Virus record (IMG/VR): IMGVR_UViG_3300022217_000228
Location: 9,347-73,346 of that record
Length of the DNA: 64,000 nt
Direction: 5' to 3' (one strand)
DNA from: a virus
Taxonomy: Duplodnaviria; Caudoviricetes
The notes under the pieces were generated by a model. The model searched no databases and was not told the DNA's origin. It worked only from the letters and a program-made list of their open reading frames with translations. How positions within the stretch are numbered: the first letter of the stretch is position 1; the number at the start of each line of letters is the position of its first letter. This document shows positions 4,126-64,000 of this stretch, one piece after another. A program made the position numbers and the translations under genes.

Positions 4126-5014
4126 AACCAAGATTGATAACTACAGCATATTTCCAGAACGACTTACTCTTGAGGAATGCGGGGAGTATCATTTCCATTA
4201 TCGGAGTATTCGCATCGCATTTACCAAGCATGAGTACAAGGATTTTATTAGTCTTACAAAGTATGATTCGAAAGACAAAAAGAAAATTTTTCTCAAAAAG
4301 GTTATGAGTTCAAATGGAGATGTGATAGACAAAAATCGTTTGGTAGTTGAGTTGAGTAAAAATACGTACATCAAACACAGGGACGACACAGCAAAAGAAG
4401 CGGACTTCTTTAAGGATAAAGCTTATATCCATGTTCATTATCGCAATATTAGATTAGAATTTCCTATCCATGAATTTATTCAAATAGCTCAAACCTTTGA
4501 TGAAGCACGAAAAGCATTACCACTAAAAACCGTCAACGACATGTTCTATGCTATTGACGATATCACATATGTTGTAATAAGAAACTTTGATAATTTGCCA
4601 AATTCAGTTAAGCTTGGACCGCACAGTGATTTGGATTTGCTATTTGCTTCAAGGCATGATGTAAATAAATTTATTCACATAACACATGCTGAAAAAACTT
4701 TCAAGGAAGAATATCGGGTACAGCACAAAGTAGCTATCGGAAAAGACTACATTCTCTGCGATTTACGGGTAATCGGTGACATGTATTTTCCGTTGCCTCT
4801 ATGCGTTGATATGATAAACATTCGGATTCGGCACAAATGTTTCTGGGTTCCATCAGAACCTACGCATTCAATAGCCTTGGCGTACCATGCACATATACAT
4901 AAAAAGCGCCTAACAAACGATTATCGCAAAAGAGTAAGGTATTCAAAATGTGATATACTGAATATGATTGAACCAACGAAACCTAAAGATAGATCTGTTG
5001 GATATAACCCATGA
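4097..5014 (+). CDS. Two-domain protein with C-terminal nucleotidyltransferase-like domain
   Basis: 'YVVIRNFDNLP...SDLDLLF' resembles the DxD nucleotidyltransferase signature. Confidence 0.45.
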   Translation: MGKVISQLAKTKIDNYSIFPERLTLEECGEYHFHYRSIRIAFTKHEYKDFISLTKYDSKDKKKIFLKKVMSSNGDVIDKNRLVVELSKNTYIKHRDDTAKEADFFKDKAYIHVHYRNIRLEFPIHEFIQIAQTFDEARKALPLKTVNDMFYAIDDITYVVIRNFDNLPNSVKLGPHSDLDLLFASRHDVNKFIHITHAEKTFKEEYRVQHKVAIGKDYILCDLRVIGDMYFPLPLCVDMINIRIRHKCFWVPSEPTHSIALAYHAHIHKKRLTNDYRKRVRYSKCDILNMIEPTKPKDRSVGYNP

Positions 5015-5538
5015 ATACATACGTTAAAAAAGAAATAGTACGATTAATAAAACAATACTATTCAAAGAACGAATTGAACGATACATCTTATAGGCTTCTC
5101 GATGTAGGATCTCTTGATATAAATGGAACCATTAAAAACAAAATACCGAAAGCATGGGAATATGTAGGAGCTGATATATTGCCTGGTAAGAATGTTGATG
5201 CTTTAATGCTTTATCCATTTAAACTTCCTTTTGATAATAACACGTTTGATTGCATTGTAAGTAGTTCGTGTCTTGAACATTGTACTAACCCATTAAAACT
5301 GGTACCAGAAATGGCGCGAGTTCTTAAGCCAAAAGGATATATGTTTATTGTAGCTCCATTTATATCTCCAAGACATGAGGTACAAGAGGATGGAACGATA
5401 CTGAAGGATTGCTGGAGATTCCTTCCGAATGGATTTGATTACCTTTTTGAAGCTGCCAATATAAAAAAATTGCATACATACAACCATAAACGAAAAGCCA
5501 ACAGAGTTTATTGCTGGGGAATAGGAAAAAAGGAATAA
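5011..5538 (+). CDS. Class I SAM-dependent methyltransferase
   Basis: 'LLDVGS', 'LPFDNNTFDCIVSSSCLEH', 'EMARVLKPKG'. Confidence 0.88.
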   Translation: MNTYVKKEIVRLIKQYYSKNELNDTSYRLLDVGSLDINGTIKNKIPKAWEYVGADILPGKNVDALMLYPFKLPFDNNTFDCIVSSSCLEHCTNPLKLVPEMARVLKPKGYMFIVAPFISPRHEVQEDGTILKDCWRFLPNGFDYLFEAANIKKLHTYNHKRKANRVYCWGIGKKE

Positions 5539-39658: not shown

Positions 39659-39791
39659 TTTCACAACGGTCCGCGAATATGTGCAGTGCTGGAGCCATCC
39701 GGCTTATTTACGCGCCTTTGGGCTGGTGCCGAAACCCGCATAATCCAACTTAGTAGCACAACCAGCATTGCATATATTCGCTGTTGTATGT
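39659..39791 (-). repeat. Solo attC-like site T
   Basis: (+) TTTCACAAC-GGTCC-GCGAATATGTGCAGTGCTGG ... CCAGCATTGCATATATTCGC-T-GTTGTATGT; same geometry as the array sites. Confidence 0.8.
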
Positions 39792-39916
39792 TGAAGGAGA
39801 TTTCCTCCATAGTGTAAAAGCGATATGTTAATTATTTTTCCCGGACGGAACGGCCTTATCCGATGTTCCGTATATTTGATAATTAACTCTCGGATGCGAT
39901 ATCGCATTACAACCAT
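39704..39916 (-). CDS. Solo cassette ORF (70 aa) reading into attC T
   Basis: AAGGAG RBS after GTTGTATGC cassette start; ends HTTANICNAG...KARK inside the hairpin. Confidence 0.5.
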   Translation of the reverse strand: MVVMRYRIRELIIKYTEHRIRPFRPGKIINISLLHYGGNLLQHTTANICNAGCATKLDYAGFGTSPKARK

Positions 39917-39940
39917 AAAAGAAATCTCCTTTTGCATACA

Positions 39941-39969
39941 ACTATATTAGTGTGAAATATATTATTCAA
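39941..39969 (-). promoter_or_regulatory. sigma70-like promoter TTGAAT-N17-TATAGT; -10 overlaps the G^TT cassette junction
   Basis: -35 at 39964-39969, -10 at 39941-39946, 17-nt spacer. Confidence 0.6.
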
Positions 39970-45495: not shown

Positions 45496-45917
45496 GCTAT
45501 TTTTTTAGCTTTTTCCAGAGTGATAGACTTTCCTCTTCTGAATTCTATTGTCGGATATTTAAACATGATGCAGTCTTGTTTGTGCACCCATAAAACGAAA
45601 GACCAGTGATTGCAAGCGTGCCACGATAAAAAATTTTTGACTTGATCGTCTGATAACCTACTGTGAAAAAGTTTATCACTATCGCATAATTTTACTTCGA
45701 TGAATGCCGGAAGCCAAAAACCATCTTGCGGGATAGAGCAGATGAAATCACACGGTGTCCCCCCGGTGTGAACAACTCTATTGTACTTTTTAATGAACAC
45801 CTTTTTTGTTTCCAGCTTATGCACATTTTCGAAGCTGTTTTCTTTGAAAAACCAGCGCGCCCGATCTTCTCCGAATTTACCGAGTTTCTGAGGGTTGACT
45901 AGTTGCATTTTCATCAA
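45480..45917 (-). CDS. PD-(D/E)xK nuclease, Holliday-junction resolvase (RecU/RusA)-like
   Basis: 'GKFGE...CDFI...FIEVK'. Confidence 0.6.
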   Translation of the reverse strand: MMKMQLVNPQKLGKFGEDRARWFFKENSFENVHKLETKKVFIKKYNRVVHTGGTPCDFICSIPQDGFWLPAFIEVKLCDSDKLFHSRLSDDQVKNFLSWHACNHWSFVLWVHKQDCIMFKYPTIEFRRGKSITLEKAKKIAWIKV

Positions 45918-46269
45918 ATAAATCGATCGTTGTATTGTTGTTATTTGAATTTCTATTATTCATATGTTTTAACAGATCAAGTCTTAGGTGGCAACGTTGA
46001 CACAGAGCTATTAAATTTTGTTTAGTACTATTCATTTTATTTCCATCAATATGATGCACAGTAAGAACTATTTTAGTTTCTTTAAAATCGACACCACATT
46101 CGTCTAATGTTTCTGTATATTCCCATGGATGCGAATAATCACTATTAAACCTGCCGACAATAATACCGTTTGGAGCAAAGCACAGCTCACACTTATTACC
46201 AGCATCTTTGATTACCTGTTTTGATAGCCATTTCCAATTTTCTGGATATTCTTTGTAATCTATTGGCAT
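45877..46269 (-). CDS. HNH endonuclease
   Basis: CELC ... 'LTVHHIDGNKMN...NLIALCQRCH'. Confidence 0.8.
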   Translation of the reverse strand: MPIDYKEYPENWKWLSKQVIKDAGNKCELCFAPNGIIVGRFNSDYSHPWEYTETLDECGVDFKETKIVLTVHHIDGNKMNSTKQNLIALCQRCHLRLDLLKHMNNRNSNNNNTTIDLFDENATSQPSETR

Positions 46270-47637: not shown

Positions 47638-47772
47638 TCACCTATTGCATAATTGTAAATGGACAAATCTTTCTTTAATCTCACAAAACGATTTTACCCA
47701 CTGCTTATCAGATTTTCTTTTAACCACGATTCCACAGTGTACACACCTGTATTTTCTGATTCGTATTTTCAT
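47638..47772 (-). CDS. 44-aa ORF inside site Z (MKIRIRKYRCVHCG...)
   Basis: ATGA-coupled to upstream cassette ORF; CxxC. Confidence 0.45.
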   Translation of the reverse strand: MKIRIRKYRCVHCGIVVKRKSDKQWVKSFCEIKERFVHLQLCNR

Positions 47773-47787
47773 TGCTGTGTTATAGGC
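47640..47787 (-). repeat. Degenerate terminal attC-like site Z
   Basis: R''-like GCCTATAAC at 47779-47787 matches its cassette start (GTTGTAGGC), but stem and R' are eroded. Confidence 0.4.
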
Positions 47788-47957
47788 TGTTGGCAAGATT
47801 CCTCATTTCTTAAAATGCGAGGACAATCACCCTCTTCACAACGATGTGTTTCGTTAATTCTCGACAAACAAACATAGCCCAAATTACCCCCATGACAGCG
47901 TTCACGCGCATTACAAAACCATTTGAATTTATCGAAATCTTCATTTAATAGAAGCAT
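47769..47957 (-). CDS. Cassette ORF, Cys-rich 62 aa
   Basis: Ends QQPITQQ across R''. Confidence 0.55.
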   Translation of the reverse strand: MLLLNEDFDKFKWFCNARERCHGGNLGYVCLSRINETHRCEEGDCPRILRNEESCQQPITQQ

Positions 47958-47986: not shown

Positions 47987-48123
47987 GCCTACAACGTTTG
48001 CGAAATGTGCGCCGTTAAAACCTATAGCCACAATGAGGACACGATTCAACGGTATCCACCTTGATTAACTTACGACAACCAGGGCACGGCTCTTTTAATG
48101 GCGCACTTTCTGCTGTTGATGGT
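47987..48123 (-). repeat. attC-like site A
   Basis: (+) GCCTACAAC...AAATGTGCGCCGTTAAAA / TTTTAATGGCGCACTTT...GTTGATGGT. Confidence 0.8.
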
Positions 48124-48299
48124 TGTGCTACGGGTTCCACAGTGTAATCAGCGCTCGACAGGAAATTTTCCAACCCTCGTAATTCTGCCTGTGCTGCCCG
48201 TTCACAACCGAGTTTAACTTCATTACCTGCTAATTGTTCAACAGCTATACTACTGGAAATAACCTTTAATCTGGACTCGATATATTCTGATAGTTTCAT
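48015..48299 (-). CDS. Cassette ORF with attC-encoded zinc ribbon
   Basis: ...STAESAPLKEPCPGC...CPHCGYRF. Confidence 0.6.
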   Translation of the reverse strand: MKLSEYIESRLKVISSSIAVEQLAGNEVKLGCERAAQAELRGLENFLSSADYTVEPVAQPSTAESAPLKEPCPGCRKLIKVDTVESCPHCGYRF

Positions 48300-48334
48300 A
48301 ATTGCGTTTATCCAATCTATTTAAGAGTAGCATT

Positions 48335-48511
48335 TCCACCAACGGACTAGGCATCCGCCCGAAGTTGCCGTTCTAAAAATTCGTGATACATTTCTGCCAT
48401 AAAAACAACATCATCTTTAATGCCACCTGCTCCAATTTCCCACAAATATTCAATAAATGATTCCTTATTGTCTTCCCATAACGGCAATTTTGGGCTGCCT
48501 GGGTTGGTGGA
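48335..48511 (-). repeat. attC-like site B
   Basis: (+) TCCACCAAC...GGCATCCGCCCGAAGTTGCCG / CGGCAATTTTGGGCTGCC...GTTGGTGGA. Confidence 0.85.
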
Positions 48512-48628
48512 TGCGTTTTCGACCTTAGTTAAAGCTTCTTTTATGCGATACCACGAATCAATAACTTTTTCTGGGTGACAAATATATTTAAAACTTGAGT
48601 CTATCGTTTTTATGTCATCAGTAAGCAT
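48347..48628 (-). CDS. Cassette ORF translating the whole of attC B
   Basis: STNPGSPKLP...RQLRADA; stop 4 nt before the crossover G. Confidence 0.6.
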   Translation of the reverse strand: MLTDDIKTIDSSFKYICHPEKVIDSWYRIKEALTKVENASTNPGSPKLPLWEDNKESFIEYLWEIGAGGIKDDVVFMAEMYHEFLERQLRADA

Positions 48629-48653
48629 AAAAGACTCCAATCAACTGAACGTT

Positions 48654-48731
48654 TCCACCAACGTCTTGGCATACCAGAAGTGCGTCAGCATTTGGGAGAG
48701 GCTTCCGAACCTGCTATTGTTTGTTATAGGC
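48654..48731 (-). repeat. attC-like site C (weak stem)
   Basis: (+) TCCACCAAC...GCATACCAGAAGT / GCTTCCGAACCTGC...GTTATAGGC. Confidence 0.65.
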
Positions 48732-48737
48732 TGTTTG

Positions 48738-49271
48738 TCAACCATCCTTATTATCCTTTTTGGAGGCGGTCTTAGCATTAGCACAAAAATCTAACCATCC
48801 TTCCTTATTACCTGTTTTCAAAAATGGCTCTGCTGCGGCTAATACCTGAAGCGCGTTCGTGTAATATGTAAGACCTTCTCCGTGACTGCCCCAAAGGTTA
48901 GTAATTCCAAGGCAGGAAGCTAACGCCGATATCGTTGCCCCATGAGCAGACTGTAGAACATCAGAGCCGTTTTTGAATATCCAATCGAGGTTAGATTTTT
49001 GTGTAGCTTCTTCTTTCTCCTCATTTCCCCATTGCTGCAATAGATCCATACGATCCGATTGAATTAATTCTAATTGTTGCTCGTAATACCATGACGATTC
49101 GCCTCTACCTTTTATATGAATGGTATATTGTTGCGATTCGCGTTTACCGCCTCCATATTGGTCTTTATATGACCCAATTACAATAGCGTAACAGTCTGAT
49201 TCAAAATGTGACATCGTGGGACCGAGGTCTTTTATTACGTGAACAAAGTCTCCTTTGTGATATTTTTGCAT
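48738..49271 (-). CDS. Cassette ORF, 177 aa hypothetical
   Basis: GGAGG RBS; N-terminal 'KYHKGDFVHV' resembles SH3-like phage proteins. Confidence 0.65.
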   Translation of the reverse strand: MQKYHKGDFVHVIKDLGPTMSHFESDCYAIVIGSYKDQYGGGKRESQQYTIHIKGRGESSWYYEQQLELIQSDRMDLLQQWGNEEKEEATQKSNLDWIFKNGSDVLQSAHGATISALASCLGITNLWGSHGEGLTYYTNALQVLAAAEPFLKTGNKEGWLDFCANAKTASKKDNKDG

Positions 49272-49312
49272 TAGTAGCCTCCAAAACTACAATATAAAAC
49301 GGTTGATAAATT

Positions 49313-49451
49313 GCCTATAACGGTTTGCGAAATGGCCGAAGTAGTGCACCCGCCGAAGCTCCCGTTGAGCTTGCACTGTTTATGTCGGGTTAGTGCGCGG
49401 CCCACGTCGGAAGTATCGAGTGCACTATTTTGACCTTTCGCTGTTATTGGC
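49313..49451 (-). repeat. attC-like site D
   Basis: (+) GCCTATAAC...GCGAAATGGCCGAAGTAGTGCAC / GTGCACTATTTTGACCTTTCGC-T-GTTATTGGC. Confidence 0.88.
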
Positions 49452-49653
49452 ATGTTGTTGCCGATTCTATAGCCAACTTTTTTCGCTGGCGTTTATATTT
49501 AATACCTTTCCAACTTGAACAAAATCCATCGCTACTAGTACGAGTATCCTGTAAATCACAGATACCAGGATTGGCGAATTTATCGTTTACCCATTTAGTA
49601 TACCAAGTACAAGAACCGCATCGTTTTTTATGTATCAAAGCGAAAAACTCCAA
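49444..49653 (-). CDS. Cassette ORF, 69 aa Cys-rich
   Basis: CGSCTWY...GICD...FCSSWK; stop TAA lies inside the R'' box. Confidence 0.6.
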   Translation of the reverse strand: MEFFALIHKKRCGSCTWYTKWVNDKFANPGICDLQDTRTSSDGFCSSWKGIKYKRQRKKLAIESATTCQ

Positions 49654-49672
49654 TTCTCAAGAGGCAATAATT

Positions 49673-49753
49673 GCCCATAACGTTCGATGCTACCAGACGT
49701 TTTAATGTTCCGAAGGACAAGCGTCAGCGCCGCTGGTAGCATTTGTTGGCTGC
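49673..49753 (-). repeat. attC-like site E
   Basis: (+) GCCCATAAC-GTTCG-ATGCTACCAG / CTGGTAGCAT-TT-GTTGGCTGC. Confidence 0.82.
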
Positions 49754-49941
49754 TGTGCAGCGTGTTCCGCCATTGCTGCGGCGCATCTATCGGAAAATCG
49801 ATTAAGCGCCGACAATACTCCAGGTTCCAAACAGATACGATCTGTAGGGTTTTCATGATCATTTGCATGTAACCAGATAGCGTATCCATCAAAAAGACCA
49901 TAGACACCATCTCCGAGATAATCTTTCATTACAAATTCCAT
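49702..49941 (-). CDS. Cassette ORF, 79 aa (MEFVMKDYLGDGVY...)
   Basis: Reads into attC E; also in frame with an upstream GTG ORF spanning attC F. Confidence 0.6.
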   Translation of the reverse strand: MEFVMKDYLGDGVYGLFDGYAIWLHANDHENPTDRICLEPGVLSALNRFSDRCAAAMAEHAAQQPTNATSGADACPSEH

Positions 49942-49975
49942 TGCGCCGCCTTTCTGTAAATTTAAGAGCTGCATT

Positions 49976-50078
49976 GAACACAACGTTTCCAGGTTTGGTG
50001 AAGTGCCGCGTGTTTTTGCGGCATTTGCCGAAGGCCGAAGTGAGCTTGCGAACGGAGCACCAAACCTGTGTTGTAAGC
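49976..50078 (-). repeat. attC-like site F
   Basis: (+) GAACACAAC-GTTTC-CAGGTTTGGTG / CACCAAACCTG-T-GTTGTAAGC. Confidence 0.85.
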
Positions 50079-50105
50079 TGTAAACCTGCCCCTGCCTTTT
50101 GCCTT

Positions 50106-50294
50106 TCACGCCGCCGCCTTCTTTTTGTTCTTTTTAAAATATTCCTTCAGTATCACGGATACTGTCTTGTTTCCCGATCTCTCATCCTCTTTCGCCTTTT
50201 TATCTATCATCGTCCAAAGGTTTGATTCAAGATAGATGCTTCGTGACGTCATTTGACTTGTTTTCATATTTTCATCTATTTTGGTGTAAGACAT
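50106..50294 (-). CDS. Ribbon-helix-helix (Arc-like) DNA-binding protein
   Basis: 'SRSIYLESNLWTMIDKKAKEDERSGNKTVSVILKEY'. Confidence 0.6.
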   Translation of the reverse strand: MSYTKIDENMKTSQMTSRSIYLESNLWTMIDKKAKEDERSGNKTVSVILKEYFKKNKKKAAA

Positions 50295-50661
50295 TATGAA
50301 ATATATAAGACTTCCTCTTGCCTTTGTCCTCACTATAAATATTGCTGCTATCACACTTTATTGGAATAGCAATCCAAAGATCATTGTTTTTGTCGGGTTT
50401 ATTATACTTATCCTGCAAAGTTGTATCGAAATGTTGAAATGTCTTACTATTGATATTGACAATTGGCTCAAGTTTAAACTGTATAGAATTGACATCAAGC
50501 TGCTTAGATATCCTTCCAAAAAGGAGAAATACGATGCAAAAGAGAAGAACTATCGTAATAAGGCTAACAGGAGAGTAGTATTCGCTGAACCTGTCTTGAT
50601 AATACTGCAAGTCACGGTTTGTCTCGGTACCTTGTTTATTCTCTTTTGGGGAGCTATTCAT
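50272..50661 (-). CDS. Single-TM membrane protein
   Basis: AGAGG RBS; TM segment LITIVLLFCIVFLLFG. Confidence 0.45.
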   Translation of the reverse strand: MNSSPKENKQGTETNRDLQYYQDRFSEYYSPVSLITIVLLFCIVFLLFGRISKQLDVNSIQFKLEPIVNINSKTFQHFDTTLQDKYNKPDKNNDLWIAIPIKCDSSNIYSEDKGKRKSYIFHNVLHQNR

Positions 50662-50851
50662 TTTTCCTCTATTTTTTAACCTCATCATGCACTATTAAAT
50701 AATGTTAAAAATGATTATTCTTTTCAGTATGAAAACGTTGCTTCCTGGCTATCCGAGAATTATTAATAGCCATTGTTATCATTCATTTTATATTCCTTTT
50801 TATTCTAACTTGTCTTTCGGCGGCGTCTTCCTGTCTTCGGGCAGGTTTTTT

Positions 50852-50984
50852 GCTTACAACGGGTTGCCGCACTCGCCAGCAGTACCCCACCGGAATAGTT
50901 TGCATTACCGGCAGCCTCGCACTTCTCGAACGTAGCGATCTCGTCCCAGAGCTTGAGGTATTGCTGGCTGCGGCTGTTGTACGA
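50852..50984 (-). repeat. attC-like site G
   Basis: (+) GCTTACAAC...CCGCACTCGCCAGCAGTACC / GGTATTGCTGGCTGCGG...GTTGTACGA. Confidence 0.82.
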
Positions 50985-51119
50985 TGTAAAGTGAGCTTCC
51001 TTAGTGTAAGCACAATCCAGCTTCGGAAGAAGTCTAATTTCACTTTTTGAAAAGTGCTACGACTTGAAAGTCCACTGTTTGGTTTAATTGTGCTTATTAA
51101 CATGAAAGCTCACTTTATT

Positions 51120-51264
51120 TTGTACAACGGCTTCAGGCACCCGCCTGCCGTGGCCGATAGAAATCGTCTGCATCTCGAATACAATGATTTGCACCTAAAA
51201 GGCAACACTGCCCCTTTTTATTATCACAATCGTCAGGACATGGCAGGCTGCCTGGGTTAGAAGC
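51120..51264 (-). repeat. attC-like site H
   Basis: (+) TTGTACAAC...GGCACCCGCCTGCCGTG / CATGGCAGGCTGCC...GTTAGAAGC. Confidence 0.82.
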
Positions 51265-51456
51265 TGTGGGCTGGGTTCCGCTGCCTTTTGAAATTTTACG
51301 AAGTAACGTACCACCAAACATTAACGGATAAACACCTACAGCTTGCCCGGCATATAAAAAACTACACTTCCCAGGCTCCTTCAACTCTATTACAACCACA
51401 TCACCGACTTTAGAGTATCCGTTACCAGCTTCTCTATATCCCGGTATATTAATCAT
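51133..51456 (-). CDS. Cassette ORF translating the whole of attC H
   Basis: GGAGG RBS; ...ASNPGSLPCPDDCD...PRQAGA. Confidence 0.6.
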   Translation of the reverse strand: MINIPGYREAGNGYSKVGDVVVIELKEPGKCSFLYAGQAVGVYPLMFGGTLLRKISKGSGTQPTASNPGSLPCPDDCDNKKGQCCLLGANHCIRDADDFYRPRQAGA

Positions 51457-51492
51457 AGTAAAATTTCCTCCAATAAATTTAAGAGTCGCATT

Positions 51493-51650
51493 GCTTCTAA
51501 CGTTTGCGAAACGTGCGCCGTTACTTGAAACACGGTTTATTAGCATAACAATGTAGATTTTTATTTTTAATAGTACATTCATCATAATAACAACACGGCC
51601 TTGCGCTCCATTCTTCGTATTCTAATGGCGCACTTTCTGCTGTTGGATGC
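51493..51650 (-). repeat. attC-like site I
   Basis: (+) GCTTCTAAC...GCGAAACGTGCGCCGTTA / TAATGGCGCACTTTCTGC-T-GTTGGATGC. Confidence 0.85.
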
Positions 51651-51820
51651 TGTTGCTCGGCGCTCCCCTTGCCCTGCCGGGCTTCACCGCAGTACAATTC
51701 CATAACATCAGATACGTATAAATATCCACGCTTATCCCCATGAAAAGCTACCTTCACACTATTTAAACATGCATCGTTTAACTTATTATCGATTAAAAAC
51801 TTCTGTTCCTTAGATCCCAT
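51521..51820 (-). CDS. Cassette ORF reading through attC I
   Basis: ...HPTAESAPL...CCYYDEC...PCFK. Confidence 0.6.
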   Translation of the reverse strand: MGSKEQKFLIDNKLNDACLNSVKVAFHGDKRGYLYVSDVMELYCGEARQGKGSAEQQHPTAESAPLEYEEWSARPCCYYDECTIKNKNLHCYANKPCFK

Positions 51821-51865
51821 AAAAACTACCTTTTACCCGGCCTTTAACATGGCCGCCGAGCAATT

Positions 51866-51948
51866 GCCACCAACGGGTTGCAAAACGTATTTAGTGCGGT
51901 ACGCTCTCATACTGCCTCACCGCGTTGAATACTTTTGCTGTTATGGGC
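51866..51948 (-). repeat. attC-like site J
   Basis: (+) GCCACCAAC...GCAAAACGTATTTAGTGCGG / CCGCGTTGAATACTTTTGC-T-GTTATGGGC. Confidence 0.85.
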
Positions 51949-52622
51949 TGTAGCGCCCGATTCCTTATTTAAAACCGCAATGAGCTGTTCTCCGAGAAAC
52001 TGCGTGTAAGCCGGCGGTATAGCTTGCGTTAACTCTTTCCTCGTCATCCAATCTATGCCCATTGCGTTTCTCCACTCAATGACACTTCCCTTTGAGACAT
52101 CACGCATGACTGTCCCCCATGTTTTCCAACGACCTGCACCACCGGCAACAGAATAATAACCCTCTCCGATACGGCGACCGCGGTGTGATGGATGAGGAGG
52201 AATAAAAAAAAATGACTACAATCAAAATGGCGATGTCTGAAAACTTTTAAACCGAACATTAAACCACATAGCGTTATTGACTTATCAAGCGGAGCGCCTG
52301 GCACGTTTTCAACTACATATGGTATTCCAATTTTTTTTAATTCCGCAAGTGTCGGCGTAAGGTAATCAATATATTTTTTACCTCTGTTACGATGGACATT
52401 GGAAGCAATTGACCATTTCTGACATGGGGGAGAGGCATGTACTACATCGAATTCGTGATGATGATCCCGGAGATATTCCAGTGCATCAGATTGGATAAAC
52501 TCAAATGGATACCGTTTTTGAAAAACAGTATCGACACCTACGATCTGAGTAAAGCCGGCCCTGAAATAACCCTTCGCTGCTCCACCTCCACCACAGTACA
52601 AATCTAAAAGTTTCCAGCTCAT
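51907..52622 (-). pseudogene. C5 DNA cytosine methyltransferase-like cassette gene, frameshifted at a T9 tract
   Basis: 'LLDLYCGGGG', 'HASPPCQ', 'YVVENV', 'RHRHF'; C-terminal 'MGIDWMTRKELTQAIPP' continues in another frame after 52204-52212. Confidence 0.8.
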
Positions 52623-52652
52623 TGCCTATTTATTCTCCAAGAGGGCGGTATT

Positions 52653-52779
52653 GCCTATAACGTCTGATAAACGGGTGAAGTGTCTACCGGGTTTTTCGGC
52701 ACACACCGAGAGGGCTGCCACCTTTGACCTCATAGTATTCATTTGTAGAATCACATTTCACCCTTTATTTGTTGTGTAT
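52653..52779 (-). repeat. attC-like site K
   Basis: (+) GCCTATAAC-GTCTG-ATAAACGGGTGAA / TTCACCCTTTAT-TT-GTTGTGTAT. Confidence 0.8.
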
Positions 52780-52891
52780 TGGTTTTGCGCTTCCGCCATT
52801 TGGCAAAAACGACACACCAACACCATAACATATTTTTAGAATACTCAGTTGCTTCTTTACAGCCTATACACGGACACTTATCTTTTGCCAT
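52751..52891 (-). CDS. Cassette ORF, 46 aa Cys-rich
   Basis: GGGGA RBS; MAKDKCPCIGC...TNTQQIKGEM. Confidence 0.5.
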   Translation of the reverse strand: MAKDKCPCIGCKEATEYSKNMLWCWCVVFAKWRKRKTNTQQIKGEM

Positions 52892-52913
52892 ACAATCCCC
52901 AAAAGCAAAACTT

Positions 52914-53099
52914 GTACACAACGGTTTAGCAAGGCAGAAGTTTGCGACTACAATATGGGCAAAACTGCATACCGTCAATTGACAAAATTGATTGTACCAA
53001 TTCACCACAAGATGTATGAAAAAATCCACCATGCTCATTTTCCTTAATTTCCCACTCGCAAATTTCCGGAGGCGAAAGCTGCCTTGCTTTGTTAGCGGA
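52914..53099 (-). repeat. attC-like site L
   Basis: (+) GTACACAAC-GGTTT-AGCAAGGCAG / CTGCCTTGCT-TT-GTTAGCGGA. Confidence 0.82.
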
Positions 53100-53270
53100 A
53101 TGTAATGCGAGTTCATTAGCTTTTAAGGCGGCAACTATTTCCCGGTGAAAACCACCAAAAAGAGTTCTAAAATATTCACCCTTACCGTCTATCGATAAAT
53201 CAGATATTGCAGTGTTCAAGTAAGCTCCGAGCCTACCATTCCCTGGATCGCACATATTTGATATATCCAC
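52926..53270 (-). CDS. Cassette ORF with attC-loop-encoded Cys domain
   Basis: ...SANKARQLSPPEICEW...TSCG...FCPYCSRKLLPC. Confidence 0.6.
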   Translation of the reverse strand: MDISNMCDPGNGRLGAYLNTAISDLSIDGKGEYFRTLFGGFHREIVAALKANELALHSANKARQLSPPEICEWEIKENEHGGFFHTSCGELVQSILSIDGMQFCPYCSRKLLPC

Positions 53271-53307
53271 TTATTGCCGCCTTTATAATAAATCTAAGAG
53301 CATTATT

Positions 53308-53391
53308 TCCGCTAACGGATTGGCAAAGAGCCGAAGTGCGGTACACTCTCATATTTACTTACCCGCATTTTGGCTTTTGCCTGTTAGCGGT
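53308..53391 (-). repeat. attC-like site M
   Basis: (+) TCCGCTAAC-GGATT-GGCAAAGAGCCGAAGTGCGG / CCGCATTTTGGCTTTTGCC-T-GTTAGCGGT. Confidence 0.88.
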
Positions 53392-53406
53392 TGTTTTGAC
53401 CGCATC

Positions 53407-53724
53407 CTAATTATCCTTTCGGCGAACGGCGGTTACACACTCTCGATACTTAACCATCCAATCGCCACAGTCTTCATGTGCCCACGGATCATCTTTATAC
53501 TGTTCGTACAAGATGGAATCATGTTTCTTTAAATCATCTATAGTTGCATTATAGGCAAGAGGACAATCCCATGAATTACAGCATCCTGGCTCCTGCTTGT
53601 TCTTGAATTTAGACGCACAACCATAACCGCCGTTTGGTATATTATCACCTGTACAAAATAATCCGCATTCTCCAGATAAATTATCAATGTCTATTAAAAC
53701 TGGTACTATGTTTCTATATGCCAT
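53407..53724 (-). CDS. Cassette ORF, Cys-rich hypothetical
   Basis: GGAG RBS; 'GECG...GYGC...GCCNSWDCPLA'. Confidence 0.6.
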   Translation of the reverse strand: MAYRNIVPVLIDIDNLSGECGLFCTGDNIPNGGYGCASKFKNKQEPGCCNSWDCPLAYNATIDDLKKHDSILYEQYKDDPWAHEDCGDWMVKYRECVTAVRRKDN

Positions 53725-53767
53725 ATTTTCTCCAGTGAGCCGAACTACAATCTCAGCGGTCAAAATT

Positions 53768-53932
53768 GCCGCTAACGGTTTAGGTTAAAAGAAGTGCCGC
53801 CATAAAGCAGCGTTACATTCTATACCACCACGCGAAAGGCAAAAGCTGCATCCAGCTACCGGACATTCGGAACATGAGGGCGGCATTTGCGGAGCCGTAG
53901 CGTTAGCGGAGCTTTTAACCTTTGTTGTGTGG
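53768..53932 (-). repeat. attC-like site N
   Basis: (+) GCCGCTAAC-GGTTT-AGGTTAAAAG / CTTTTAACCT-TT-GTTGTGTGG. Confidence 0.8.
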
Positions 53933-54156
53933 GCGCTTCGCCGGACTGGTTTTGTTGACTCCACATTATCCAGTGATTCTATGAAAGCTGCTACTTGACG
54001 CAAGCAATCGGGACGCCACCAAGTTAGATCGTCGCTTATTAGACACCACCTTTTCTTTCGGCTTACCCACTCTTTATGTATACGGCCGATTGCAACTGTA
54101 CGATAACCAAAAACTGTAAACCCTTTATCGTCCGCTTCTATTTTTAGAGCTTTCAT
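53785..54156 (-). CDS. Cassette ORF reading through attC N
   Basis: ...SAHTTKVKSS...CSECPVAGCSFC. Confidence 0.6.
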   Translation of the reverse strand: MKALKIEADDKGFTVFGYRTVAIGRIHKEWVSRKKRWCLISDDLTWWRPDCLRQVAAFIESLDNVESTKPVRRSAHTTKVKSSANATAPQMPPSCSECPVAGCSFCLSRGGIECNAALWRHFF

Positions 54157-54187
54157 AAATCACCTTTAATATGGTTCAACAAAACTT

Positions 54188-54334
54188 GCGCACAACGTCT
54201 CAGGCACCCGCCCGAAGTTGCCGACACAGTTCATCGTAAAACTGCTGAGTTACCCACCTATGACGATCCTCTGCACCAGTAGCCTCAAACATCTCATCGT
54301 GTGTCGGCAATTTTGGGCTGCCTGTGTTGGTGGA
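54188..54334 (-). repeat. attC-like site O
   Basis: (+) GCGCACAAC...CAGGCACCCGCCCGAAGTTGCCGACAC / GTGTCGGCAATTTTGGGCTGCCTG-T-GTTGGTGGA. Confidence 0.88.
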
Positions 54335-54451
54335 AGTAAATTTTTCCTCCACCAGTTTTTTTATGCGGCCCCAAGCCTCCATCGGCCACAATTTGCCATA
54401 GCTAATGACCGCCTCTTCAACATCGGTAATATCCCCTTTGGTTATAAGCAT
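54200..54451 (-). CDS. Cassette ORF translating the whole of attC O
   Basis: STNTGSPKLP...RQLRAGA; same attC-derived peptides as 48347-48628. Confidence 0.6.
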   Translation of the reverse strand: MLITKGDITDVEEAVISYGKLWPMEAWGRIKKLVEEKFTSTNTGSPKLPTHDEMFEATGAEDRHRWVTQQFYDELCRQLRAGA

Positions 54452-54480
54452 ATACTACAATCTCCAGAGAAAAATTTATT

Positions 54481-54647
54481 TCCACCAACGGATTGGCGAT
54501 AACAGAAGTTACGCCGGTTGATAATTACTAAGACAATCTACCGAATTAATTTTCCACATACAATTAAGACCACCAACGCATCGTGAACAATTAGGCGTAA
54601 TTTCCCCTTCGGGCAAGGCTTCCGCCGTGTTATCGCCTGTTGTAAGC
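54481..54647 (-). repeat. attC-like site P
   Basis: (+) TCCACCAAC-GGATT-GGCGATAACA / TGTTATCGCC-T-GTTGTAAGC. Confidence 0.82.
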
Positions 54648-54844
54648 TGTGCTGACGCTTCCCCTTGTTCTGAGTTTGGCACCTCACGGGCAGGGCAATT
54701 ACTCGGTGGTAACATTGACGGGGCAATATCACATGTTTTTCCAGTACACCGTAACTCATCGGATCTTAACCCGCATTCGTCGGTATCACAACACCACCAT
54801 GGGCACTGCCCTACCGTAGAAAAGAAAACTATCGTATACTTCAT
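54509..54844 (-). CDS. Cassette ORF, Cys-rich, reading through attC P
   Basis: AGGAG RBS; QCPWWCC...PSNCP; tail CSRCVGGLNC. Confidence 0.6.
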   Translation of the reverse strand: MKYTIVFFSTVGQCPWWCCDTDECGLRSDELRCTGKTCDIAPSMLPPSNCPAREVPNSEQGEASAQLTTGDNTAEALPEGEITPNCSRCVGGLNCMWKINSVDCLSNYQPA

Positions 54845-54878
54845 TTGACAAACTCCTATGTTCTCAAAAGGAGGCATT

Positions 54879-54959
54879 GATTACAACGTGCTTGCGTTAA
54901 GTAAAGTTGCCTTAGCAATTTGGGAGAACGGAGCGAACTACTTAACGCATGTTGTAAGC
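54879..54959 (-). repeat. attC-like site Q
   Basis: (+) GATTACAAC-GTGCT-TGCGTTAAGTA / TACTTAACGCA-T-GTTGTAAGC. Confidence 0.88.
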
Positions 54960-54991
54960 AGTTCTCTACCGCTCCCCTAATTCAGCGAGGC

Positions 54992-55132
54992 TCACCCCCG
55001 CCAGATACTGCAATCCCATCTCGTTTTATATACTTGTTCGATGGTATCTTCTACTTCCAGTTCGTATATATCTTCGTACCCGCAACGAGGGCACTTTGTA
55101 AATCTTCGTTTCCGCTTTATAGTTTCTTTCAT
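54992..55132 (-). CDS. Cassette ORF, 46-aa zinc ribbon
   Basis: GAGG RBS; MKETIKRKRRFTKCPRCG...; read by hand. Confidence 0.5.
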   Translation of the reverse strand: MKETIKRKRRFTKCPRCGYEDIYELEVEDTIEQVYKTRWDCSIWRG

Positions 55133-55168
55133 TTCAGCCTCGCCTTATAATATGGCCGGTAGATAATT

Positions 55169-55248
55169 GATTACAACGTTAGCGCACAGCCGATGCAGTA
55201 CGCTTACCTGCCTTGCCCGACTGTTTCGGCTTGCGACGTGTTGTTGGC
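55169..55248 (-). repeat. attC-like site R
   Basis: (+) GATTACAAC-GTTAG-CGCACAGCCGA / TCGGCTTGCG...GTTGTTGGC. Confidence 0.78.
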
Positions 55249-55494
55249 TGTAAAAAGTGTTGATACCGCAGATTTCAAGCGGGTTGCTGACTTGCGCTCA
55301 CTTAACCATATGTTAAATACAAGCACATCGACTTCTTGGGTTGTCCACCGCTCCTTACAATCAACACACATCTTACGCCTCCTTATGCTATCAAAGCCCA
55401 TTATTTTAGACTTTCGCGAATCCATAACATAAATTTTAGTACCATCACAATTAGGACATTGTGTTGATGAAGATCCGTCAATAACATTCTTCAA
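55204..55494 (-). CDS. First cassette ORF: NrdR-N-terminal-like zinc ribbon
   Basis: CPNC...VMDSR...SIRRRKMCVDCKERWTTQE mirrors the NrdR pattern CPxC...VxDSR...IRRRRxCxxCxxRFTTxE. Confidence 0.7.
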   Translation of the reverse strand: MKNVIDGSSSTQCPNCDGTKIYVMDSRKSKIMGFDSIRRRKMCVDCKERWTTQEVDVLVFNIWLSERKSATRLKSAVSTLFTANNTSQAETVGQGR

Positions 55495-55533
55495 AGCAAG
55501 CCGCCTTTAATATGTTTTTCAACACTTTTTATT

Positions 55534-55563
55534 GCCTACAACTAGACGTTATGTGAAATATAC
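55534..55563 (-). other. attI-like site (or collapsed attC) at the head of the array
   Basis: (-) TATATTTCACATAAC-GTCTA-GTTGTAGGC: inverted core boxes with a 5-nt spacer and no hairpin. Confidence 0.55.
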
Positions 55564-55938: not shown

Positions 55939-56166
55939 TTAACCGTAGCCGGAGCCGGAGCCGTAGCCGGAGCCGGAGCCGGAGCCGTCGCCGTCGCCGT
56001 AGCCGTAGCCGTCGCCGTCGCCGGAGCCGTAGCCGTAGCCGTAGCCGTAGCCGTCGCCGTCGCCGGAGCCGTCGCCGTAGCCGTCGCCGTAGCCGGAGCC
56101 GTCGCCGGAGCCGTAGCCGGAGCCGTCGCCGGAGCCGTAGCCGTATTTAATATTAATTTTGTTCAT
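55939..56166 (-). CDS. Gly/Ser/Tyr/Asp low-complexity protein (GYGSGDG repeats)
   Basis: Tandem CCGTAG/CCGGAG/CCGTCG hexamers at about 55943-56143. Confidence 0.7.
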   Translation of the reverse strand: MNKINIKYGYGSGDGSGYGSGDGSGYGDGYGDGSGDGDGYGYGYGYGSGDGDGYGYGDGDGSGSGSGYGSGSGYG

Positions 56167-63635: not shown

Positions 63636-63953
63636 TTATTTAACCCTTACGGAAACATAATATTGATTTGGTTCGCAACTTTGATCAGAACAATCGCTGC
63701 ATGATTCGCAGTGATCACACCCATCCGCTTCATTTTCTTTGCTCATATCATTTTTGATATTTTCAACATTCCAATCAGTAATAGCCAATTGCTCAAGAGC
63801 ATCATCTAAAGCCTCATTAGCTGATGTTCCCATGCCTGTTGCCACATCATCATAATCGGTACACGCTATGCCACATCCCTGAAAATATTGTGGGTTGTCT
63901 ACTCCGTGATCGACTATTTCATAGTCGCTGATTATTTTGTTTGTTGAATCCAT
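63636..63953 (-). CDS. Early-region acidic hypothetical protein
   Basis: 'DHGVDNPQYFQGCG...GMG...EALDDALEQL'. Confidence 0.6.
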   Translation of the reverse strand: MDSTNKIISDYEIVDHGVDNPQYFQGCGIACTDYDDVATGMGTSANEALDDALEQLAITDWNVENIKNDMSKENEADGCDHCESCSDCSDQSCEPNQYYVSVRVK

Positions 63954-64000
63954 GTGATCCTCCTTGGTGGTTGGTTTGATTTGCTTACAAAATAATCAGC

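Follow-up and report, generated by a model that had tools for sequence, protein, structure and literature searches.

Hairpins of a phage integron-like cassette array are probably recombination sites translated as the ends of cassette proteins

Why would the genes of a cassette array run on into the hairpins that separate them? This question is raised by a 64,000-nt stretch of a virus of the Caudoviricetes (the window; bases 9347-73346 of the 73,346-bp IMG/VR record IMGVR_UViG_3300022217_000228), in which 18 imperfect hairpins, each closed by 5'-AAC...GTT-3', occupy 47989-55246 on the minus strand and resemble attC, the cassette recombination site of integrons. An initial annotation, made from the sequence alone, had proposed that open reading frames (ORFs) are translated through these sites and that the hairpin loops encode small cysteine-rich domains. 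Our analysis confirmed, with firm statistical support, that the ORFs run on into the hairpins, and this layout is general in a family of phage cassette arrays. The hairpins are probably structure-specific recombination sites of a phage-borne integron-like cassette system, embedded in the 3' ends of genes and translated with them.

In the sense of the genes, each hairpin opens with YNNYAAC (the R'' box) and closes with C-GTTRNNNN(C/A)AAT (the R' box), and the span from AAC to GTT is 62-174 nt across the array sites. A cassette (c1 to c18, numbered as its site) extends from the TT of one GTT core through leader, ORF, R'', 5' arm, loop and 3' arm to the G of the next. A home-made duplex scanner recovered 17 of the 18 array sites, a solo site at 39667-39785 and two outlying plus-strand sites that precede the window (genome positions 4819-4968 and 5127-5268), giving 21 sites in the genome. 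The arm duplex was far more stable than with a shuffled 3' arm in 20 of the 21 (z -3.6 to -7.1), the exception being the degenerate hairpin of site 3. The AAC and CGTT cores were invariant among 30 aligned sites; MAFFT aligned the cores and not the arms across arm families, and the loops of the array sites were unrelated in sequence. An attI-like motif, ATATTTCACATAA(C/T)-N-TAG/TT (the slash after G marks the crossover), stands ahead of the first cassette at each of the three array heads in the genome (Table 1).

The ORF passed R'' in 12 of the 18 array cassettes (c1, c2, c5, c8, c9, c10, c11, c12, c14, c15, c16 and c18), as well as in the solo cassette and both outlying ones, and stopped before or in R'' in c3, c4, c6, c13 and c17. 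The stop lay 3-4 nt before the crossover G in c2, c8, c12 and c15, and 8-9 nt before it in c14 (8 nt) and the first outlier. In c1, c5, c9 and c16 the distance was 19-20 nt, with the stop at the start of the 3' arm (a TAA in c9, 19 nt before G), and it was 26-36 nt in c18 (26), c10 (32), the second outlier and the solo cassette (36). As caveats, the read-through piece of c10 is part of a frameshifted methyltransferase, and c11 enters its site by just 20 nt. The initial annotation had counted 13 of 19 cassettes, and the solo one, with ORFs past R'', and had placed four ORF ends (48347, 51133, 52926 and 54200) close to the crossover G. Both statements agree with our analysis, the first when a 62-aa ORF downstream of site 1 is added to the 12. 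The arm peptides it listed were also present, TAESAPL in c1 and c9, N(P/T)GSPKLP...RQLRA(D/G)A in c2 and c15 and NPGSLP...RQAGA in c8, whose arms are related to those of sites 2 and 15, as were cysteine motifs in the loops of c1, c8, c12, c14 and c16.

The 62-aa ORF (47769-47957, minus strand) is cysteine-rich and ends 10 nt past an R''-like box (CAGCCTATAAC). The box is complementary to the R' of site 1, and no hairpin follows it (z 0.5). This ORF is probably the last cassette, with a decayed site.

Coding signals were then assessed in the 13 read-through segments of the genome. Their 450 hairpin codons contained no stop, compared with 53 stops in 900 codons of the other two frames (density 0.059; P = 1.4e-12). 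Codon-usage log-odds, trained on 34 long genes of the same phage, were +60 in the ORF frame versus -68 and -301 in the shifted frames, and the ORF frame scored positive in 12 of the 13 segments. In a Pfam profile search the c1 loop matched the zinc ribbon PF10571 (UPF0547) over residues 72-94, CPGC...CPHC (30.3 bits; gathering cut-off 29), and zinc-ribbon hits of the other cysteine loops were sub-threshold throughout. These results bear on the possibility that the open frames through the hairpins are not expressed, the true products ending elsewhere or the tails being tolerated junk. Several cassette proteins without homologues would suit it (the c2 protein matched itself alone in a word-indexed protein search), as would the lack of a Pfam hit for most of them. 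However, the read-through ORFs have no in-frame stop before the hairpin, codon usage fits the ORF frame alone, the loops carry zinc-ribbon motifs, one of them above the Pfam cut-off, and both the codon phase of independent sites and a confidently predicted helical tail are conserved (below). We consider non-expression extremely improbable.

The phase was assessed in 57 distinct sites of the NTGSPKLP...RQLRAGA family, taken from other phage and metagenome contigs, 52 of which had the same distance between arm cores modulo 3. Past the conserved core, variable positions two and three formed Watson-Crick pairs in 89% and 79% of sites, using four pair types, compared with 37% and 36% after the partners were shuffled. 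They belong to the codons that follow KLP and precede RQLRA, and pairing is gone from the fourth position on; therefore, the hairpin stem covaries within translated codons. Among 36 sites selected by the 5' arm alone, the codons of the 3' arm were nearly fixed (Arg CGG in 31 of 32 and 34 of 35, Leu CTT in 36 of 36, Ala GCC in 35 of 36; Ala also GCG), and the same codons made up 16-28% of their families elsewhere in those ORFs, with CGG, CTT and GCC at 16-20%. The sole variable arm codon (GGT, AGT, GAT or AAT) sits at a bulge with unpaired DNA. Phase, covariation, frozen synonymous codons and codon usage agree with the dual constraint proposed by the initial annotation, and at the sequence level a recombination site constrained both by structure and by coding is well supported.

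Other phages carry these arms as well. Nine other IMG/VR contigs contained the 3' arm of sites 2 and 15 (GGCAACTTCGGGCGGRTGCC), in each case 80-130 nt downstream of the matching 5' arm, and the same frame was open, running from (H/D)NTGSPKLP through a variable segment to (R/W)QLRAGA and a TGA that is part of the arm. A scan of JGI metagenomes with the 5' arm alone gave 70 hits, 62 of them complete, with 45 distinct tails; the stop lay 3-4 nt before GTT in 37 of the 45, and most ended in RQLRA(G/S/D/N)A. The arm peptides thus recur in other phage proteins, as had been anticipated. A 3'-arm scan of one genome per prokaryote species returned 12 hits, 11 of which were rejected as chance matches in GC-rich genes; the one true site lay in a 9-kb phage-like contig (L016) of a metagenome-assembled genome, so the arm family looks phage-specific. 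It was unseen in bacterial chromosomal integrons among these species-representative genomes. The 3' arm pattern of c1 and c9 had no match in viral contigs.

We further surveyed 77 loci, which yielded 210 non-redundant predicted sites, 203 with an assigned ORF. In 131 of the 203 the ORF passed R'' and stopped before G, 116 of these reading more than half of the site, and in 41 it ended no later than R''. Distances from stop to G peaked at 2-5 nt and 21-27 nt. The same read-through habit was seen in arrays beside recombinase genes, a set selected without reference to the arm family.

What do the loops encode? About a quarter of the tails carried CxxC...CxxC or related cysteine patterns, several with sub-threshold zinc-ribbon hits. 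The remaining tails aligned together, with a common pattern ending Y(D/E)(F/W)(I/L)xRQLRAGA; since most non-cysteine loops are mutually related, they represent a variable domain and not arbitrary inserts. An AlphaFold2 model of the c15 tail, based on that alignment, consisted of two helices (mean pLDDT 81; 90-94 over the loop-encoded part), with the 5' arm peptide as a non-regular linker. The 45 distinct N-terminal bodies found behind identical arms fell into 36 BLASTP clusters. Loci L075 and L058 shared about 99% DNA identity over body and 5' arm, ending about 25 nt after AAC, and had unrelated loops, while unrelated bodies preceded an identical loop in L080 and L026; in L007 and L070 a zinc-type loop followed the W-x-RIK body family to which c2 and c15 belong. 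This reassortment of bodies and tails supports the loop as a module slot. The earlier proposal of a slot for extra protein domains is supported by the PF10571 match, the two-helix model and the reassortment, and needs correction in that most non-cysteine loops belong to one variable domain. In a bolder picture, which we hold only tentatively and regard as possible rather than likely, the translated hairpins would be in-frame joints of a natural domain-shuffling system, in which C-terminal modules (zinc ribbons, helical hairpins) are swapped among unrelated bodies and cassettes move at G/TT, run by a Xer-like recombinase that acts on folded DNA and lacks the I2 domain, which is regarded as the hallmark of integron integrases.

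The recombination behaviour of the sites was assessed from their cores and from shared segments. R'' matched 4.7 of 6 positions of the R' that bounds the same cassette upstream (P 2e-8), compared with 2.9 of 6 for its own hairpin partner and 2.6 of 6 for random pairs. The contigs share many cassette-sized segments in differing contexts, and segments at least 95% identical between contigs provided 89 informative right ends and 99 left ends. Of the 89 right ends, 42 were no more than 6 nt from a predicted R' G, with peaks at +2 to +5, and a further 15 were at the end of a conserved GTTRNNNNCAAT box; 28 of the 99 left ends lay at G (peak at -1 and 0), and a second class of 12 lay exactly at the AAC of R''. 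Because the ends of shared segments cluster at G/TT, the sites behave as recombination sites. The main crossover is at G/TT as in integrons, and the minor breakpoint class in the region of R'' and the 5' arm fits tail exchange.

A crossover at the AAC of R'', with a cassette made of a hairpin and the next ORF, was also considered, since the surplus bases face AAC on the sense strand. It was rejected on four grounds: just 2 of the 89 right ends lay within 6 nt of AAC, versus the 42 at G; arrays begin at an attI-like site followed by an ORF, not a hairpin; the solo cassette has the order GTT, ORF, hairpin, GTT; and the codon phase of AAC differs among arm families.

Two arm-family loci, L009 and L016, carry a tyrosine recombinase of 288-298 aa directly upstream of the array on the same strand. 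The best models were of the XerA, XerC and XerD types, all below cut-off (XerA_Arch 175 and 202 bits versus 220); the integron integrase model TIGR02249 gave 114 and 149 bits versus a cut-off of 265 and matched in two pieces. Alignment to the VchIntIA (IntI4) structure 2a3v (320 aa) likewise ran in two stretches, and the region holding the IntI-specific insert was absent. Conserved stretches resembling the catalytic motifs (GLR, HxLRH, LGH and a C-terminal Y) were visible in the family. By these matches the two proteins are classed as Xer-like simple tyrosine recombinases, outside the NCBIfam XerA, XerC and XerD equivalogs. Homologues 48-88% identical came from metagenomes, and the four with DNA were all in phage contexts (RecT, terminase, portal); a recombinase search in viral contigs returned only an already known contig. 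At all six recombinase loci (Table 1) the predicted sites lay downstream on the strand of the gene (52 sites, versus 0 upstream). In L016 and L096-L099 the motif TTCAYCATAAC-TTAG/TT stood between the recombinase stop codon and the first cassette. The array-head motif of our genome resembles this motif and stands there with no recombinase gene; the phage therefore holds the arrays of the system, not its recombinase.

These findings also bear on a reading in which the arms are short homologies used by phage annealing proteins, so that shuffling would be relaxed homologous recombination with neither a site-specific enzyme nor folded DNA. It would account for a phage without a tyrosine recombinase in a six-frame genome search and with a Sak4-like annealing protein gene flanking the array, and for bodies and tails that reassort. 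Exchange within conserved arms would also result in breakpoints at the R'' AAC and the 5' arm end, as in the minority of 12 of 99 left ends at AAC and about 10 of 89 right ends 20-25 nt after AAC. However, most breakpoints fall at a 3-nt GTT core common to sites with quite different arms, the offset complementarity of R'' and R' implies circular units joined within the triplet, the arm pairing covaries, which homology-driven exchange does not need, and in six of six related loci the sites of this family are linked to a recombinase gene and an attI-like site. We judge homologous shuffling alone to be unlikely.

Could the hairpins instead act mainly in RNA, as terminators, processing signals or translation regulators, with a superficial likeness to attC? 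Their position at gene ends in one transcription direction would fit this, and attC hairpins in mRNA affect translation of the downstream cassette (review PMC8876359). On the other side, the sites have 23 G.T pairs on the antisense strand versus 4 on the sense strand, where conserved A.C mismatches stand instead, which makes the mRNA form the weaker hairpin. Ribosomes would also unfold most of the hairpins, since these lie inside ORFs; the shared cassette-sized segments end at G/TT; and the offset core complementarity would be meaningless for an RNA element. A mainly RNA role is very unlikely. The strand difference in G.T pairs parallels the bottom-strand bias of attC, for which 1.24 versus 0.39 G.T pairs per site have been reported (PMC5027507).

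How, then, do the sites compare with known systems? Like attC, they are imperfect hairpins with AAC and GTT cores, a variable terminal loop, a GTT crossover and cassettes in one direction, and as in integrons R'' is complementary to the start of its own cassette and an attI-like site heads the array. Most window sites fall within the attC length range of 57-141 bp, with longer spans in sites 2, 9, 12, 14 and 16. The surplus bases occupy the arm opposite to that of the extrahelical bases in canonical attC. Because the spacer geometry differs (below), we call the sites attC-like, not canonical. Integrons have IntI, whereas this genome has none; its relatives carry a Xer-like recombinase that lacks the IntI insert and is encoded in the same orientation as the cassettes. 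Of the attC identity assumed at the outset, the cores, hairpins and G/TT crossover stand, and the spacer geometry and the integrase do not. The CTX phage offers a parallel for the enzyme, in that at its attP a simple Xer-type recombinase without the IntI insert (XerCD) acts on a hairpin of single-stranded phage DNA; that system integrates the whole phage genome at dif, and has no cassette array and no coding overlap.

With 18 clustered sites and no recombinase, the layout fits a CALIN (cluster of at least two attC sites with no integron integrase nearby), although the sites depart from attC in one structural feature. CALINs in virulent phages have been described with IntegronFinder or HattCI (Qi et al. 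2023, PMC9892861); in the portion of that paper used here there are four figured examples with two to about four attC sites each, similar to our case in attC-type sites, small cassettes and lack of IntI. In contrast, our genome has 21 sites, most of them coding, and in relatives this site family comes with a recombinase of its own. That same portion of the paper makes no mention of translated sites. In annotation practice the overlap between an integron ORF and attC is at most 15 bp (ACID, PMC2674596), whereas here the ORFs would be translated through the site. Computer-designed attC sites have been placed within coding sequences and tested with IntI1 (Nivina et al. 2020, PMC7439510); such a site can encode a linker or a protein part, as attC function rests on structure. 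Unlike those synthetic sites, the present ones are natural and widespread, and their loops encode whole small domains. Short ORFs in attI and attC (ORF-11, ORF-17 and attC-internal ORFs) aid translation of the downstream cassette (review PMC8876359), and there too ribosomes pass the sequence of a recombination site and can relieve mRNA stem-loop barriers. They are separate leader-like peptides of 11-18 residues, whereas here the cassette's own protein runs on, by up to 55 codons. Our literature search returned no paper on natural cassette proteins translated through the whole site, nor on a phage Xer-type integron.

Several points weigh against a translated, recombining site. In c7 no frame stops before the G/TT junction, so the initial statement that the whole site is translated but never the junction stands for c2, c8, c12 and c15 and does not extend to c7. 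In the survey, 31 of the 203 ORFs appeared to cross G, some of which may be mis-called sites or ORFs. The surveyed loci were picked for one read-through arm family, and the read-through fraction is inflated because each locus was chosen for one read-through site. At the threshold used, the scanner produces about 10 false positives per strand in 73 kb, and false negatives too. The spacer by the R box is asymmetric: the R'' arm has 1-2 nt and the R' arm 4-5 nt, compared with 5-6 nt on each arm in canonical attC. A six-frame search of the complete genome gave no match to the tyrosine recombinase family PF00589, and the array may be static in this phage or may rely on an enzyme of the host or of a co-infecting phage. 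Finally, that ribosomes pass through the sites is something we infer from the sequence.

On the preferred reading, R'' and the 5' arm would be read as a linker rich in Pro, Gly and Ser (e.g. NTGSPKLP), the variable loop as a small module at the C-terminus (zinc-ribbon-like or made of two helices), and the 3' arm as the last residues (e.g. RQLRAGA), followed, 3-36 nt before the crossover G, by a stop codon that often belongs to the conserved arm. As the stop precedes G, the ORF lies wholly inside the cassette and recombination at G/TT would therefore leave it unaltered. The same bases would be selected twice, for pairing in single-stranded DNA and for coding, and, with the conserved arms as joints, C-terminal modules could be exchanged among N-terminal bodies. 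The identity of the folding strand, the enzyme at work in this phage and the reason for the overlap are likewise matters of inference; candidate reasons for the overlap are a saving of about 100 nt per cassette and the melting of an mRNA hairpin that would hinder downstream expression.

If this reading is correct, these sites are a natural counterpart of the engineering result, a structure-specific recombination site inside a gene that encodes a functional part of the protein. Most of these genes would be cut short or lost under annotation rules that limit the overlap of an ORF with attC to about 15 bp. The reading would explain the recurrent C-terminal signature NTGSPKLP...RQLRAGA and its relatives in hypothetical phage proteins, and the reassortment of tails and bodies would point to a route by which phages build new small proteins. 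The link to a Xer-like recombinase without the IntI insert would bear on how integron integrases came to use single-stranded hairpins, and the link of the site family on how genes become associated with such sites. The conserved arms could also serve as ready-made, evolution-tested templates for embedding recombination sites in ORFs.

Table 1. Coordinates of sites, array heads and recombinase genes (window positions unless a genome position or locus is given)
Feature	Position	Strand	Description
Site 18	55171..55246	-	ORF c18 55204-55494 passes R'' by 36 nt; stop 26 nt before G; N-terminus an NrdR-like zinc ribbon
Site 17	54881..54957	-	ORF c17 54992-55132 stops 41 nt before R''; canonical layout
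Site 16	54483..54645	-	ORF c16 54509-54844/54877 reads 5' arm and loop (CSRC...C); stop 19 nt before G
Site 15	54190..54332	-	NTGSPKLP...RQLRAGA arms; ORF c15 54200-54451 spans whole site; TGA 3 nt before G
Site 14	53770..53930	-	ORF c14 53785-54156 reads through; loop CSEC..CSFC; stop 8 nt before G
Site 13	53310..53389	-	ORF c13 53407-53763 stops 24 nt before R''; canonical layout
Site 12	52916..53097	-	ORF c12 52926-53270 spans whole site; loop CEW..SCG..FCPYC; stop 3 nt before G
Site 11	52655..52777	-	Short Cys-rich ORF c11 52751-52894 stops in 5' arm, 20 nt after AAC
Site 10	51868..51946	-	c10 methyltransferase 52053-52622 and 51907-52107; last piece 33 nt past R''
Site 9	51495..51648	-	TAESAPL arms; ORF c9 51521-51820 reads 5' arm and Cys-rich loop
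Site 8	51122..51262	-	ORF c8 51133-51459 reads through; loop CPDDCD..CC; stop 4 nt before G
Site 7	50854..50982	-	Both long open frames of c7 cross G/TT
Site 6	49978..50076	-	Ribbon-helix-helix ORF 50106-50354 stops 36 nt before R''
Site 5	49675..49751	-	ORF c5 49702-49941 passes R'' by 43 nt; stop 20 nt before G
Site 4	49315..49449	-	ORF c4 49444-49653; TAA within R'' box (CAATAAC); canonical layout
Site 3	48656..48730	-	Degenerate hairpin; ORF c3 48738-49271 stops just before R''
Site 2	48337..48509	-	NPGSPKLP...RQLRADA arms; ORF c2 48347-48628/48640 spans whole site; stop 3 nt before G
Site 1	47989..48121	-	TAESAPL arms; ORF c1 48015-48299 reads 5' arm and CPGC...CPHC loop; stop 19 nt before G
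Array head, GTT box	55531-55542	-	GTTGTAGGCAAT; no hairpin
Array head, attI-like site	55531..55561	-	ATATTTCACATAAC-N-TAG, then G/TTGTAGGCAAT; no hairpin
attI-like motif	55543-55561	-	ATATTTCACATAA(C/T)-N-TAG/TT
attI-like motif	39943-39965	-	ATATTTCACATAA(C/T)-N-TAG/TT
attI-like motif	genome 4582-4605	+	ATATTTCACATAA(C/T)-N-TAG/TT; upstream of window
Solo cassette, outside array	39661..39945	-	G/TTGTATGC, ORF 39704-39916, hairpin
Solo hairpin	AAC 39783-39785, G 39667	-	ORF 79 nt past R''; stop 36 nt before G
Xer-like recombinase (273-298 aa)	L009:10226-11122		At array head
Xer-like recombinase (273-298 aa)	L016:249-1115		At array head
Xer-like recombinase (273-298 aa)	L096:5142-5996		At array head
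Xer-like recombinase (273-298 aa)	L097:7001-7849		At array head
Xer-like recombinase (273-298 aa)	L098:7001-7834		At array head
Xer-like recombinase (273-298 aa)	L099:7001-7822		At array head

The record carries a 126-bp direct terminal repeat of 100% identity (genome 1-126 and 73210-73335; window 63864-63989) and is therefore a complete genome. A sediment metagenome was the only sequencing run containing the stretch and is probably the source sample. The phage identity of the genome is clear from its predicted products, which include a portal protein, a DnaC-like helicase loader, a Sak4-like annealing protein, an HNH endonuclease and glycosyltransferases. A megablast search of the structural genes against deposited phages gave no match, and relatives found through the Sak4-like gene (L001, L002) had that gene alone in common and no array. 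The genes of the array region are all on the minus strand. The HNH endonuclease gene adjoins this region (45877-46269, minus strand), and the N-terminus of its product is closely similar to that of L016:4779-5168, which points to related phages.

Three cassettes have unusual contents. In c7 (50783-51103, minus strand) an ATG-started frame of 106 aa and a start-less frame of about 80 codons cross G/TT into the next cassette; the start-less one looks more protein-like, and c7 could be a fused or decayed cassette. In c10 (51907-52622, minus strand) a C5 cytosine DNA methyltransferase is broken into overlapping frames near a T run (about 52195-52210), which could reflect a pseudogene, an assembly error or a programmed shift. 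The unusually long c6 (876 bp) holds, at 50106-50688, overlapping ORFs of 127 aa (plus strand, hydrophobic) and 138 aa (minus strand) besides its ribbon-helix-helix ORF (minus strand), and is possibly a toxin-antitoxin-like module of two genes. A 75-aa ORF shortly upstream of the array head (55939-56166, minus strand) consists almost entirely of Gly, Tyr, Asp and Ser repeats (GYGSGDGS...).

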